64,000 bases of DNA from a virus (IMGVR_UViG_3300045988_142892); one strand, 5' to 3'. Numbered from the stretch's first letter, positions 3,913 to 64,000 are shown. The notes: generated by a model from the sequence alone, not told the origin. Program-made: numbers and translations.

Positions 3913-4118
3913 AAATATATAAAAAATAAGAAAATGCTTTTGTGATGGAATTGGTATACATACTAGACTAGGTGAAATTATGAATTATACCATAGATTAG
4001 TTAATCGCTGAATGGAAAGATTAGATTGCTTCTATGAAGTATTATAATTATAGTCCAGAGATTATTGATAAAAATGAGTAGATTCTTACTTATTTCCAAG
4101 AGTTAAAGGAGTATAAAA

Positions 4119-4637
4119 ATGGAAATCGAACGTAAGTTTGATATTAAAAATATTCCTTCTTGGATGAAGGAAAAAAGTGTTCGTCATAAGAAAATTGAGC
4201 AAATCTATCTTATGATTGACTTTGATAATGATGGTAAAGTGCTTGAAGAAATTCGAGCGCGGAAAGCTATTAATCTTAAAACCAATCAAGTTGATTATAA
4301 GATGACTTATAAATATGGTGATGGTCTTTCTCGTGAAGAAATTGAAACGCCAATTTCCTCAGATTTCTATGAAATGATTAAGAAAACTCGACATGAAGGT
4401 TATAATCCTATTATTAAGGATTATTACATGGTTGAAGATATTTACAATCCTAATCGTTTGATTGAAATTAGTGAAGTTGATGGGAAATTTTGCTATGCAG
4501 AAGTTGAATTTCCTGATGAAAAGACTGCTAATGAATATATCTGGCCTTATCCTGAAATCTTAGGGCCAAAAGGTGAAATGACAAATCAGCCTAATGAACG
4601 AATGTCAGTTTATTGGTTGAAATCGCGGGTTTCTTGA
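4119..4637 (+). CDS. CYTH-domain protein (triphosphate tunnel metalloenzyme; CyaB / thiamine-triphosphatase family)
   Basis: N-terminal MEIERKF (the ExExK signature), 172 aa; RBS aaaggagtataaaaatg. Confidence 0.6.
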   Translation: MEIERKFDIKNIPSWMKEKSVRHKKIEQIYLMIDFDNDGKVLEEIRARKAINLKTNQVDYKMTYKYGDGLSREEIETPISSDFYEMIKKTRHEGYNPIIKDYYMVEDIYNPNRLIEISEVDGKFCYAEVEFPDEKTANEYIWPYPEILGPKGEMTNQPNERMSVYWLKSRVS

Positions 4638-4648
4638 CTCGCCGATCT

Positions 4649-4797
4649 GGGGTGGTAAGTCAAAGGCTAGACTAGGCGACTTATCTGTGAGTAGTTTAAA
4701 TGGTAAAATAACGGTAGTACTACGAAGATTTAGGTTCAAGGCCTAATTCACAGGCCAAATCGCTCAATGGTGAGTTCGAGTCTCCCTCGCCCTACCA
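4649..4797 (+). tRNA. tRNA gene with about 73 nt of intervening sequence in the anticodon loop (anticodon undetermined)
   Basis: 5' half: acceptor ggggtgg, D-arm agtc-aaaggcta-gact, anticodon-stem 5' ggcga. 3' half: anticodon-stem 3' tcgct, variable caatg, T-arm gtgag-ttcgagt-ctccc, acceptor tcgccct, A, CCA. About 80 nt of loop plus insert lies between the stem halves. Confidence 0.5.
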
Positions 4798-4909
4798 GTG
4801 TCATGGTATTTCCTTTCTTAACTAAATAAAGACTCATACAGCAACTTTTTTGCTTACAATAAGCGCTTAATGTGGGATTAAGAAGAATGAAGAGTCTTGT
4901 AGCGAATTT

Positions 4910-4986
4910 GTCCCCGTAGTTCAGTTGGATAGAACAAAGGATTTCTAATCCTTGTGTCGGGCGTTCGAATCGCTCCGGGGATGCCA
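4910..4986 (+). tRNA. tRNA-Arg(TCT)
   Basis: Acceptor gtccccg/cggggat; anticodon stem aagga/tcctt with loop ttTCTaa; T-arm gggcg-ttcgaat-cgctc; CCA encoded. Confidence 0.7.
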
Positions 4987-5046
4987 AGGGTATATTTCAT
5001 TAATAAAAGTCATTGAAACCTTAAAAATATTAAGGAAGGTGATTTG

Positions 5047-5904
5047 ATGAAGATATATTCTCCAAGTAATTATTCATATATAAAAATTATTGAAATTCCA
5101 AAAGAAGAAATTAGCAAGTTGGATATGGCGTTATGCGCTCAACCGCGTTAGACTTTAAAGCAATACTATGATAGTTGCGCGGTTAAACCTACTATTTTAA
5201 CTAATGGTGGTTTTTTTAGCATGGATAATGGTGGCACTTGTTTTAATTATATGGACGATGGCGTAATCATTAATTCCACTTCTTCTTATAAAGAAGGTTT
5301 TGGTATTATTAATGGTGAATTGAAATACGGTATAATTGGAACAGAAAAGTTTGAAGATTTTGTTAGCGGTTATCCAGTATTGATTAAAGCTGGTAAAAAA
5401 GCTCAAATTACTTATGCTAAAGAGTTAAATTATAAAGCTCGTAGAACAGTATTAGCATATAATAAATTTAATATTTATTTAATTGCTATTGAAAAGCCAG
5501 GTATGGCATTTACAGAAATGTAGAATTTACTTTTAGCATTAAAAGTTGATTATGCAATTAACCTTGATGGCGGTGGTAGCACAAAAGTTCTTCATAATGG
5601 AACTTGTATCACTAAGGATTGGGGCGATCGCGCAGTCGATAATGTAATGGCTATTTATCTTAAACCGCAAATTATTTATCGCGTTCAACTTGGTGCTTTT
5701 GGATCTAAATCCAACGCTGACGCTTTCTTATTGAAAATTAAAGCATTACCTGATACTATTGGAGCAGGTTATAAAAATGCTTATATTCGTAAAATTGGTA
5801 AGTATTATAAAGTTCAAGTTGGTGCTTTTTCTGTCAAAGCAAATGCTATAAAAGTAATTAATGATTTAAAATCAAAAGGTTATAATGCGTTTTTAACTAC
5901 TTAA
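5047..5904 (+). CDS. Phosphodiester-glycosidase (NAGPA/DUF2233-like) domain plus C-terminal SPOR peptidoglycan-binding domain; reads through 2 in-frame TAGs
   Basis: Track ORFs 5221-5523 and 5647-5904 share one frame with ATG 5047 (RBS aaggaaggtgatttgatg); TAGs at 5149 and 5521; NLDGGGST motif; SPOR-like YRVQLGAF...YKVQVGAF repeats. Confidence 0.55.
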
Positions 5905-61521: not shown

Positions 61522-61538
61522 AATTAAGGAGAAAAATT

Positions 61539-61721
61539 ATGAAGAGTGGTAATGTTGAATACAAGATGAGCAATAGAATGGCTAAGGAGATTATTCGTTC
61601 TTATAAAGCCATTCCTAGTCTTGCTAAGCTTCGTCCGCAGGAAATGCTTGTCCATTATGTTAATGAACAGTGTGGACTTATGAGAAATTGTTCTAAAGTA
61701 ATTACTTATGATAGTATTTGA
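61539..61721 (+). CDS. Small hypothetical protein (60 aa)
   Basis: RBS attaaggagaaaaattatg. Confidence 0.4.
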   Translation: MKSGNVEYKMSNRMAKEIIRSYKAIPSLAKLRPQEMLVHYVNEQCGLMRNCSKVITYDSI

Positions 61722-62811
61722 TAAATCAGAAATTCGTCAAGCTCTTGTGCTTGAAAATATTTATGATTTATTAATTGAATGGGGCGGAGATCCTGAATAT
61801 ACAGAATTCGGGATTCTCTCTTCCACCATTTGTCATAATCCTCCTGGAGAAGGTAGCAGAAAACTTTATTTTTATGAAAATACAGGATTATTTAAGTGCT
61901 ACACAGGATGTGATTCAACTTTTGATATTTTTGAATTATGTTCTAAAGTAATGAAAATTCAATATGATGAAGAATTTGATTTAAATGATTCAGTTTTATG
62001 GGTTGCTCGTCGTTTTGGTTTATCAGGTATGATAAAAGATGACGACATGGGTAAAACTTTAGATGATTGGAAAATTTTATCAAATTATTCTCGTATTCAA
62101 GAGATTGAATTAAAAAATAATAAAATTATTTTAAAAGATTATGATGATTCTATTTTAAATAGATTAAATTATAATATTAAAATAATTCCTTGGCTTGATG
62201 AGGGAATTTCTCAAGAAGTAATTAATAAAGCGCGTATTGGTTTTTATCCAGGAGCAGATCAAATTACAATTCCGCATTATGATATTAGTGGAAGATTTGT
62301 GGGCTTGCGCGGACGCACTATGTGCAAAGATGAGGCAGAGCTATATGGGAAATATAGACCAATGAAAATAAATAATCAATTATATAATCACCCTCTTGGA
62401 ATGAACTTATATGGATTAAATTGGTCTAAAAATGCCATTGGCATAATGAAAAAAGCAATAATTTTTGAAAGTGAAAAATCAGTATTGAAATATGCTACTG
62501 ATTTCGGTTGGAATAACAATATATCAGTAGCTTGTTGCGGAAGTAATGTTTCTTCGCATCAAATTCAATTATTATTAGATAGTGGTGCACAAGAAATTAT
62601 AATTGCTTTTGATAGACAATTCCAAGAAATTGGAGACGCGGAATTCCAACATCTAAAATTAAATCTTTTAAAAATTAGAACTAAATTTAAAAATGATGTA
62701 CTCATATCTTTTATTTTTGATAAAAATATGATTACAAAATACAAAGATTCACCAATTGATGAAGGAAAAGAAAAATTTTTACAATTATATAAGGAAAGGA
62801 TATTTATATGA
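61708..62811 (+). CDS. DNA primase (DnaG-like zinc ribbon plus TOPRIM)
   Basis: CHNPPGEGSRKLYFYENTGLFKCYTGCDS zinc-binding motif; 367 aa. Confidence 0.65.
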   Translation: MIVFDKSEIRQALVLENIYDLLIEWGGDPEYTEFGILSSTICHNPPGEGSRKLYFYENTGLFKCYTGCDSTFDIFELCSKVMKIQYDEEFDLNDSVLWVARRFGLSGMIKDDDMGKTLDDWKILSNYSRIQEIELKNNKIILKDYDDSILNRLNYNIKIIPWLDEGISQEVINKARIGFYPGADQITIPHYDISGRFVGLRGRTMCKDEAELYGKYRPMKINNQLYNHPLGMNLYGLNWSKNAIGIMKKAIIFESEKSVLKYATDFGWNNNISVACCGSNVSSHQIQLLLDSGAQEIIIAFDRQFQEIGDAEFQHLKLNLLKIRTKFKNDVLISFIFDKNMITKYKDSPIDEGKEKFLQLYKERIFI

Positions 62812-62875
62812 ATGATCCTATCTCTGTAAATGATACAATTATTTCACTGAGTGCGCAGATGGGAGAGAGTGGTTT

Positions 62876-63193
62876 ATGACAGGTATTGTTTGGTGTAATA
62901 CTTTCATTGAAGGGGCTGAACAATTAGAAAGAATTGAAGAACAATATAAAGCAATGGGCATAAAACCAATAGAAAAAAATAAATCTATCAATCGTTATTC
63001 TATAGTTTTTGAAAATGAAGATTATTGGAGAGTAGTTATTTCTACTGGAAATGCCAGAGGTTACAAGTGTAATATTTCTTATATTTCTCGTCAAATTCCT
63101 CTTTCAGTTATTAAAATTATTATTTTTCCATGCACAAGAGCCCTTCCTTATACTGCTTATCATTACTATGGTGATCCAGTAGAAAAGGACTGA
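62876..63193 (+). CDS. Hypothetical protein (105 aa)
   Basis: ORF between the primase and the RecJ-like gene. Confidence 0.35.
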   Translation: MTGIVWCNTFIEGAEQLERIEEQYKAMGIKPIEKNKSINRYSIVFENEDYWRVVISTGNARGYKCNISYISRQIPLSVIKIIIFPCTRALPYTAYHYYGDPVEKD

Positions 63194-63262
63194 TATGAAT
63201 AAGTAAATTATAGAAATTCTTAAATAATAGTGGTGGTATTATGAAAGGAGGTTGAATAGCCT

Positions 63263-64000
63263 ATGGACTATCAACTAAAAGCCCCTCGCATCCCGCAGTA
63301 TTCAGCGGTCGAACAGGTGCTAACCAATAGAGGAATTAAATTACAAGATATTCCTCATTATCTTAATACCACTGATGACGACATTATAGAACCAGCGACT
63401 ATTGATAGAATAGAAAATGGTGCAAAAATGCTCGTCAAACATATTGCACAAAATGACAAAGTTCTTATATAGGTAGATAGTGATTGTGATGGTTATACTT
63501 CGGCGGCCGCACTCATGAATTACTTATACTGTCTTTTTCCTGCGTTTGTGCAAAACAATATTTTTTATCGTGTCCATGCAGGAAAACAACACGGAATTAT
63601 ACCAGATAGTATTGATAAAGATATTAAATTAGTAATTGCTCCAGATTCTTCATCAAATGATTATTTAGAACATGAATATTTATATAAAAATGGTATTGAC
63701 GTGTTGGTAATAGACCACCATGAAGCTGATAAAATATCATAGTATGCTTGTATTATTAACAATCAATTATGTGATTATCCGACCAAATCTTTATCTGGTG
63801 TAGGAATGGTTTATAAGTTTTGTTGTTATATTGATGAACTTATGAATGTTCAGTATGCGGATCATATATTGGATTTAGTTGCTCTTGGAATGGTGGCCGA
63901 CATGATGGATATGCGTGATTTTGAAACAAAATATTTAATTAATAAAGGCTTACAACAAATCACCAATCCTTACTTCAGAGGCATAATCAATAGAGATTAG
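63263..64000 (+). CDS. RecJ-like DHH-family phosphoesterase / ssDNA exonuclease (3' end cut by the window); reads through 2 in-frame TAGs
   Basis: DHH motifs VDSDCDGYTSAAAL and VLVIDHHEAD; track ORFs 63263, 63515 and 63806 share one frame; TAGs at 63470 and 63740. Confidence 0.6.

Follow-up and report, generated by a model that had tools for sequence, protein, structure and literature searches.

The phages closest to the one described here are the TAG-recoded gut phages of Borges et al. (bioRxiv 10.1101/2021.08.26.457843), among them crAss-like, Lak, Sapphire and related phages. In these, 26-71% of the genes are recoded, including those for lysis and structure and, variably, those for replication; the lysozyme-type amidase is TAG-biased, homing endonucleases are preferentially recoded and standard-code sisters are found nearby. 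Recoding is described as a gate for late and lysis genes, and TAG is proposed to be the extreme case of a phage-tRNA codon axis. In the TGA-recoded Agate phages of the same study, a group I intron homing endonuclease is preferentially recoded. For crAss-like phages, proteomics is reported to have shown that TAG is read as glutamine (PMC9523058), and for T4-like phages a match between the codon usage of late genes and the phage's own tRNA set is cited in Borges et al. (see also PMC12482277). Mgcod (bioRxiv 10.1101/2022.06.29.495998) describes dual-coded phage genomes as being made up of standard-code and alternative-code blocks.

Here we describe how in-frame TAG codons are distributed among the genes of a 64,000-nucleotide stretch (the window) of the virus IMGVR_UViG_3300045988_142892. 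The window has a G+C content of 34%, its long open reading frames (ORFs) are all on the plus strand, and it is near-identical to IMG/VR contigs of 181-197 kb, the gene order of which wraps around. The source is predicted to be a phage with a genome of about 195 kb, which has its own tRNA(CUA) and decodes TAG as glutamine. Its genes fall into two classes, in which TAG makes up either about 3% or about 35% of the Gln codons. Both the TAG pattern and the gating idea are already published by Borges et al. and this phage is a further case, independent and well replicated, of phages partitioning their proteome by a reassigned stop codon; added here are a quantified two-state model, conservation across clades, a link to the phage-tRNA codon axis and the interleaving of the two classes within transcription units.

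Two classes of genes by TAG content

ORFs were called from stop to stop with TAG as a sense codon, and starts were set by the strong AAGGAGG ribosome-binding signal. After curation there are 79 genes with 17,998 codons and 42 in-frame TAGs, all within 14 genes. Curation dropped a total of 13 TAGs from the longest-ORF set: 11 fall within codons 1-50 of six ORFs that had been extended too far (those of Ro-like, PhoH and GyrA, and 5983, 32327 and 43386), whereas the spurious ORF 40229, which was removed, held two. The TAGs of ORFs 23022 and 23273 and of the RNase H ORF at 50208 were excluded by the same curation of starts; for Ro-like, PhoH, GyrA and RNase H, the TAGs near the 5' end of the longest ORF all lie upstream of a start that is preceded by a Shine-Dalgarno sequence.

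When the 42 TAGs were placed randomly over all Gln-like codons (TAG, CAA and CAG) in 20,000 trials, about 28 genes were expected to have at least one TAG and no trial went as low as the 14 observed (minimum 19). The result persists when TAGs are placed per codon and when the codon-optimised genes or the endolysin are left out, and also in the uncurated ORF set (22 TAG-bearing genes against 33 expected, 0/20,000 permutations as low). All but one of the 14 TAG-bearing genes have at least two TAGs. For 132 sampled genes, from the window and from regions beyond it, a two-class binomial mixture with TAG fractions of 0.029 (weight 0.69) and 0.353 (weight 0.31) fits better than a single rate (Bayesian information criterion 336 versus 452).

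The largest number of TAGs in the window is found in the endolysin (45611-46912; Phage_lysozyme2 and Amidase_2 domains): nine TAGs, corresponding to 36% of its Gln codons and present in both Pfam domains. Five are in the gene for a Listeria-Bacteroides repeat protein (8984-10507), four in the gene for a GIY-YIG endonuclease with a coiled coil (55037-56050), and three each in a methyltransferase (MTase)-like gene (24765-25616) and a DUF262/GmrSD_N gene (25618-26625). Genes with two TAGs encode an Mtd_N fibre (10899-12152), a fibre-like protein of 1028 amino acids (13784-16870), a NAGPA glycosidase with SPOR domain (5044-5904), a 222-amino-acid protein of unknown function (56103-56771), a 177-amino-acid protein and the DnaB helicase (together 59466-61521), and a DHH/RecJ-like protein, the gene of which is cut by the window end (63263-64000) and has six TAGs in its full length of 582 codons. 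The gene of a C39-like peptidase (19826-20320) has one TAG, and a 51-amino-acid ORF (3980-4135), whose status as a gene is uncertain, has three.

The longest TAG-free run (26898-45548) consists of 31 genes with 159 Gln codons (P = 1.8e-6) and includes the Ro-like DUF2828/DUF7788 gene, MVP, cREC_REC, RlaP, three Metallophos genes and an RNA ligase, as well as a Macro-like gene, NADAR, an AAA_33 kinase, flotillin and PIN-PhoH. A second run (47499-54977) has DUF5662, GyrB, RNase H, GyrA, DNA ligase and small genes; a third (56846-59328) is a unit with an early-type promoter and consists of a 125-amino-acid gene, an SSB-like gene of 315 amino acids and AAA_24/Sak4. The primase-like gene (61708-62811) is TAG-free too, as are a small ORF at 12154-12498, the Mtd_N fibre at 12529-13767, two fibre-like genes (16957-18300 and 18543-19811) and the gene for a holin-like transmembrane protein downstream of the endolysin (46914-47309). 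Gene names are mostly backed by Pfam, with weak matches for Macro (E = 0.002), RNA ligase (E = 3e-4) and the Toprim domain of the primase (E = 0.04); the methyltransferase has no Pfam match and its label rests on the motifs EPSAGAGSF and NPPF seen in the protein.

The preliminary description of this DNA had listed the TAG counts of the endolysin, the Listeria-Bacteroides repeat protein, the GIY-YIG endonuclease, the methyltransferase, the DUF262 protein and two fibres: all are reproduced, and its list of TAG-free genes, from the Ro-like gene to the primase, holds once starts are curated. It was also correct that a minority of replication genes carry TAGs (DnaB two, the RecJ-like gene two in the window) and that the split is not purely one of early versus late genes. 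Counted per gene, TAG frequency is not uniform, either in the window or over the 132 sampled genes.

More has to be changed in its statement that TAGs are dense in lysis and virion genes. Within the window, TAGs per 1000 codons are 11.8 in the lysis and cell wall class, 10.5 in the mobile and defence class and 1.9 in the replication class, and there is none in the 5,075 codons of the RNA-repair and vault cargo class. With 2.7, the seven fibre-like genes taken as a group are near the mean of the window (2.3), and only three of the seven carry TAG; the claim thus holds for the endolysin and for a tail-like module outside the window, but not for the fibres within. In near-identical contigs of 194 kb, this module lies about 27 kb downstream of the window on the opposite strand and has TAGs in 18/18 genes: 85 TAGs in 7,256 codons (11.7 per 1000; 32% of Gln codons), 34 of them in the gene of a 2,564-amino-acid protein. 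Its probable identity as a tail module is based on weak PHROGs matches ("tail protein" and "tail fiber") and on the C-terminus of one gene, which is homologous to a fibre of the window. For lysis, the endolysin with its nine TAGs agrees with the claim, but the adjoining transmembrane protein gene has none, and neither has a second Phage_lysozyme2-domain gene about 2 kb past the window end (L082:11803-12642; contigs other than the window are given by our own labels). The product of the latter has an N-terminal transmembrane segment and could be a virion-associated or secreted lysozyme on a different schedule. With a TAG fraction of 0.36 the endolysin is typical for the high class, and similar to the tail-like module: it is a normal member of the recoded class and no special target.

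The phage resembles those of Borges et al. in having a phage-encoded tRNA(CUA) and partial recoding (here about 18% of the window genes and about 31% of the sampled genes), in its recoded lysis and structural genes, variable replication genes and TAG-biased lysozyme-type amidase, and in its close standard-code sisters; the genome size of about 195 kb is like that of the large TAG-recoded clades. It differs in that the endolysin is not above the tail module and that several fibres and one lysozyme-domain gene are TAG-free. In size, TAG recoding and the low recoded fraction it resembles the Sapphire clade. As in the Agate phages, homing endonucleases among the early and replication genes are among the most recoded, but the reassigned codon is TAG rather than TGA and the endonucleases are free-standing genes. 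The long TAG-free runs (18.6 kb and 8 kb) and the uniformly recoded tail-like module on the opposite strand are similar to the blocks of Mgcod; in contrast, the replication region alternates between the classes gene by gene within single promoter-to-terminator units, and the block model therefore fits only part of the genome.

Decoding of TAG and conservation in related phages

A suppressor tRNA(CUA) of 73 nucleotides is encoded on the plus strand at 7729-7801 (ARAGORN; Rfam tRNA, 52 bits) and folds as a cloverleaf. U1 and C72 are unpaired and G73 is present; an unpaired U1 together with G73 we take to be glutamine-like features, assuming the identity rules of E. coli tRNA-Gln. All close strains, as well as clades of 65-75% identity, have a tRNA(CUA) at this site, and its 73-nucleotide form is 100% identical in contigs L099 and L095. 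Strains that are more than 95% identical, with identical flanks, have either this allele or one of 90 nucleotides with a long variable arm (L092:15008-15097, L093:15986-16075, L097:15582-15671, L090:8448-8537); U1 is unpaired and G73 present in both alleles, and in strains with the 90-nucleotide allele the partner of TAG is still mainly a Gln codon, from a small number of sites.

With TAG as a sense codon, the plus-strand content in ORFs of at least 100 amino acids increases from 41.6 to 50.6 kb (+9 kb), and in recoded relatives ORF coverage rises by 10-20%. The Pfam lysozyme and amidase domains of the endolysin run across seven of its nine TAGs, and curated complete genes end in TAA or TGA, with the doubtful ORF 8035-8397 as the sole exception. 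Between strains of at least 90% identity, TAG is exchanged with another codon at ten distinct sites (deduplicated): CAA or CAG at eight and GAA at two. In divergent orthologues Gln and Glu tie as the commonest residue opposite TAG. These data fit a reading of TAG as glutamine. Across the sampled DNA of roughly 130 kb, neither a release factor nor an aminoacyl-tRNA synthetase was seen.

These 130 kb, of about 195 kb, comprise the window and regions beyond it that were read in near-identical contigs; the outward walk got as far as the tail-like module, and the capsid, portal and terminase genes lie outside the part covered. Relatives are loci around GyrA and MVP with 50-99% identity. In-frame TAGs together with TAG terminators reliably classify these as recoded or standard-code, while a threshold on coverage gain, used in the pooled-clade tally, misplaced L027 (as recoded) and L020 (as standard-code). 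L027 and L032 (GyrA 70% identical) use the standard code: there are no in-frame TAGs in 16-17 orthologues, and TAG serves as a terminator. As they are about as distant as the recoded clades, the code changed within this phage family. With the standard-code sisters, some 60 related contigs are at hand for comparison. Among GenBank phages, megablast with 24 kb found no close relative, and the only phages matched by the MVP protein were three huge ones, at 39-41% identity.

The class of many genes is conserved. MVP, the Ro-like gene, gyrase, flotillin and the SSB-like gene are TAG-free in recoded clades at 50-80% protein identity; the pooled counts for recoded clades (TAG/Gln codons) are 0/151 for MVP, 0/80 for GyrB, 0/73 for flotillin, 0/53 for the SSB-like gene, 0/52 for the Ro-like gene and 2/127 for GyrA. 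GIY-YIG genes are at the other end with 27/105: orthologues in recoded clades have 4-11 TAGs each, and every GIY-YIG gene in the recoded loci examined is TAG-rich (4/337, 4/255, 8/237 and 15/311 codons). PhoH (17/125) and the holin-like gene (6/11) have TAGs in the pooled clades. The 177-amino-acid gene is TAG-free in the divergent clades but for one TAG in one clade. In the slot after PhoH, endolysins differ in architecture between recoded clades, and all have TAGs; these TAGs in non-orthologous genes are best read as convergence. Only 2/127 TAG positions are common to different clades while the class of the gene persists, so the state of a gene outlives its individual TAGs. The conserved TAG-free state argues for selection and against recent acquisition: it appears to be held over deep divergence, while single TAGs come and go.

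Promoters, codon usage and the origin of the split

Near-consensus sigma70 promoters are frequent on the plus strand (13 versus 2.2 expected; two on the minus strand) and 11 of these 13 are intergenic. An extended promoter motif, TATAATATTTAYA, occurs 19 times against 2.3 expected, usually directly 3' of a terminator hairpin. This promoter type, TTGAYW-N17-TATAAT followed by ATTTAYA, has 16 plus-strand sites, for example at 377, 21746, 23909, 28498, 34772, 38161, 40179, 54629, 56802 and 59395, and together with terminators these promoters break the genome up into short units. The tRNA cluster with tRNA(CUA) has upstream of it a sigma70-type promoter with perfect TTGACA-17-TATAAT (5914-5942, plus strand), and a second promoter motif at 6700-6712 (plus strand); no terminator lies between either of them and tRNA(CUA), the next one being at 10512. 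Early-type promoters are located in front of the tRNA clusters and of the units for vault, RNA repair, gyrase and SSB/Sak4, but also of units with MTase/DUF262 and DnaB/RecJ. The cassette of endolysin and transmembrane protein has terminators on both sides, one 27 nucleotides upstream of the endolysin start (45553-45584, plus strand) and one after the transmembrane protein gene (47313-47349), and no early-type promoter inside; the GIY-YIG gene starts 16 nucleotides after a terminator (54993-55021). An association of TAG with promoter class, which the preliminary description had proposed to look for, is real but partial: the TAG share is 12.8% in units without and 5.9% with an early-type promoter (2.3-fold, P = 0.013), but the classes are mixed within units, and eight TAG-bearing genes are inside early-type units. 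As the sole explanation of the split, transcription units are thus only partly supported. Single units with both classes are suitable for tests of translational gating by ribosome profiling.

The split is also related to codon usage. A set of codon-optimised genes, among them MVP, the Ro-like gene, RNA ligase, flotillin, an AAA ATPase, the SSB-like gene and a few others (2661-3839, 20589-20960, 23948-24763, 26898-28424, 28542-31040, 35173-36552, 41986-43371, 54708-54977 and 57238-58185), uses AAG and CAG almost exclusively; MVP has AAA:AAG at 2:61 and CAA:CAG at 0:27. In comparison with the other genes AAA is at 0.18 versus 0.77, TTA at 0.04 versus 0.42, AGA at 0.05 versus 0.33 and CCA at 0.03 versus 0.30, and GGA, ACA, TCA and ATA are shunned as well, so that nearly all A-ending codons with a phage-encoded U34 tRNA are avoided. 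AAT, GAT and TAT are still preferred, and as T-ending codons remain preferred, the bias looks like an adaptation to the host tRNA pool and not like foreign composition; it is kept in the orthologues of the SSB-like gene, Sak4 and the gene at 54708. TAG use correlates with an index of phage-tRNA codons from which Gln is left out (rho = 0.39, P = 0.005), and the difference stays after dropping the optimised genes (P = 0.03). A low index is found for the TAG-free fibres at 12529 and 16957. Many TAG-free genes, however, have a high one (primase 0.62, Pol III alpha 0.54, PhoH 0.52, GyrB 0.47), and the codon axis is therefore no substitute for the two-class split. As in T4-like phages, a codon axis tied to the phage tRNA repertoire separates groups of genes; unlike there, one subset of genes shuns nearly all phage-tRNA codons.

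The explanation that we favour, with somewhat more confidence than doubt, is that the split is shaped by selection, according to whether a gene has to be translated by the unaltered host system, either at an early stage or very efficiently, or may be delayed until the phage tRNA is supplied. The TAG-free genes (vault, Ro-like and RNA-repair genes, gyrase, Pol III alpha, ligase, SSB-like gene, Sak4) would be translatable by host ribosomes from the first minute. The TAG-bearing genes (endolysin, tail module, homing endonucleases, MTase/DUF262 and other accessory genes) would give truncated products until tRNA(CUA), which would be transcribed from host-type promoters and accumulate, has built up. 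From these patterns we infer a temporal order and an early cost of TAG, and a gate that may be an adaptation or a tolerated by-product. The proposal of the preliminary description that recoding acts as a gate is supported in part: the two classes, their conservation across clades, the TAGs in the endolysins of all recoded clades, the homing endonucleases, which are always TAG-rich, and the promoter context are consistent with it, but it is limited by TAG-free late-type genes, TAGs in replication genes, class switching, an endolysin that is no richer in TAG than the tail module and the sharing of units by the two classes.

Several observations weigh against selection by the timing or efficiency of translation. 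If a strong early promoter drives tRNA(CUA), the imposed delay may be short, and the assignments of genes as early or late are themselves predictions. TAGs are present in DnaB, RecJ, NrdD, NrdG and RecD-like genes, and absent from three fibre genes, the holin-like gene and the second lysozyme-domain gene. TAG-bearing and TAG-free genes share units bounded by the same promoter and terminator, and the effect of promoters is 2.3-fold. Three genes have switched class: PhoH has no TAG here and 1-5 in most other recoded clades, DnaB has two here and none in divergent clades, and the holin-like gene has none here and two in the orthologues of three divergent clades. The TAG share of the endolysin is no higher than that of the tail module; as it is not enriched, a dedicated lysis lock is not needed.

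Much of this could also arise by passive tolerance: TAG would be a neutral synonym of CAA/CAG that drifts to about 35% in genes expressed after the suppressor has become abundant, and would be lost only from those translated earlier, so that the pattern is a footprint of expression order. We regard this as possible, but clearly less probable than selection for host translation. It is favoured somewhat by the one TAG fraction that is common to the endolysin (36%), the tail module (32%) and the other genes of the high class, and it agrees with the fast turnover of TAG positions, the labile class of PhoH, DnaB and the holin-like gene and the many high-class genes that are accessory and of unknown function. 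Its predictions for the sequence are identical to those of gating, so the two cannot be separated on this level, but the homing endonucleases in early units are consistently TAG-rich, which is easier to explain if the block is useful. Expression level seems unlikely as the general cause. If TAG is decoded less efficiently, because release factor 1 competes, it would be purged from highly expressed genes, and indeed MVP, the Ro-like gene, RNA ligase, flotillin, the AAA ATPase, the SSB-like gene and two fibres are host-adapted in their codons and TAG-free, while homing endonucleases and accessory genes are plausibly weakly expressed. Many TAG-free genes are not codon-optimised, though (primase, PhoH, Pol III alpha, GyrB), and the clustering of TAGs survives removal of the optimised genes. 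Moreover, the proteins of the tail module, which are needed in many copies, are the most recoded, and the 2564-amino-acid protein with its 34 TAGs could be made only if read-through is near complete. Expression level thus accounts for the codon-optimised subset only.

That the TAG-free genes were gained recently from standard-code organisms and have not yet accumulated TAGs is very improbable, although the vault, Ro-like and RNA-repair genes are unusual cargo with a G+C content of 0.42-0.46. Such a foreign origin is contradicted by the TAG-free orthologues in recoded clades at 50-80% protein identity and by the bias, which is limited to A-ending codons while T-ending ones are preferred; TAG is absent from core genes of replication as well (GyrA, GyrB, Pol III alpha). 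For chance or an artefact of gene calling there is next to no probability left: the 13 TAGs of the longest-ORF set did come from over-extended or spurious ORFs, but the permutations of both the curated and the uncurated set and the repetition of the pattern in relatives refute it. A more far-reaching extension, which we consider rather improbable, would make TAG the top of a three-tier translation programme keyed to phage tRNAs. MVP, the Ro-like gene, RNA ligase, flotillin, the AAA ATPase, the SSB-like gene and some fibres would form a first tier that avoids the A-ending codons read by U34 tRNAs (AAA, CAA, TTA, AGA, GGA, CCA, ACA, TCA, ATA); the second tier would use these codons freely and the third would need tRNA(CUA) besides. 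If true, the vault and RNA-repair proteins could be produced even if U34 tRNAs run short or are cleaved by an anticodon nuclease of the host, and the repair machinery would be encoded independently of the very tRNAs that it repairs. The swap of the 73- and 90-nucleotide alleles and a possible intron-bearing tRNA-Gln(UUG) would then be part of the same tRNA arms race.

Flanking genes, fibres and further RNA features

Downstream of the window, DNA polymerase III alpha has no TAG in 1,278 codons (49 Gln codons), and NrdD and NrdG have one TAG each. Upstream, near-identical contigs have a cluster (L180:2098-11074, L099:155-4710) with radical-SAM enzymes, a YcaO cyclodehydratase, a radical-SAM/glycosyltransferase fusion and a low-complexity protein rich in Ser, Asn and Tyr, which resembles a peptide-modification pathway. 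In this cluster, TAG-free genes adjoin very TAG-rich ones (nine TAGs in 698 amino acids; nine in 180), and it contains a third GIY-YIG gene with four TAGs in 255 amino acids.

In the region 10899-19811 of the window, several fibre genes start with an Mtd_N (major tropism determinant) domain, and their C-termini are found again in one fibre gene of the tail-like module far from here, which suggests exchangeable cassettes for receptor binding. The strong AAGGAGG ribosome-binding sites together with cell-wall-binding domains (SPOR, SH3, CHAP and PG_binding) suggest a Gram-positive host.

In the window, ARAGORN predicts 21 tRNAs and Rfam one more. A conventional tRNA-Gln(UUG) is present in the tRNA array of no strain, though CAA is the main Gln codon. 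With its intron option, ARAGORN finds a split tRNA at 7268-7466 with an insertion of 123 nucleotides in the anticodon loop; the Rfam scan gave no match to it. The split tRNA is kept, including the insertion, in a clade of 75% identity, and L090 has compensatory changes in all four stems; the mature anticodon would be UUC (Glu) or UUG (Gln), depending on the splice junction. A "tRNA-SeC(tca)" called by ARAGORN in L097 and L099 sits inside apparent coding sequence and is probably a false positive. The doubtful ORF 8035-8397 has 120 codons and no family match and enters tRNA-Tyr (8375-8464); no stop codon, of whatever kind, occurs in its frame before a TAG within this tRNA, and it is either not a gene or the lone TAG-terminated frame. 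Directly 3' of tRNA-Leu(UAA) there is a RAGATH-33 RNA at 22049-22177, with 127 bits and thus above the gathering score.

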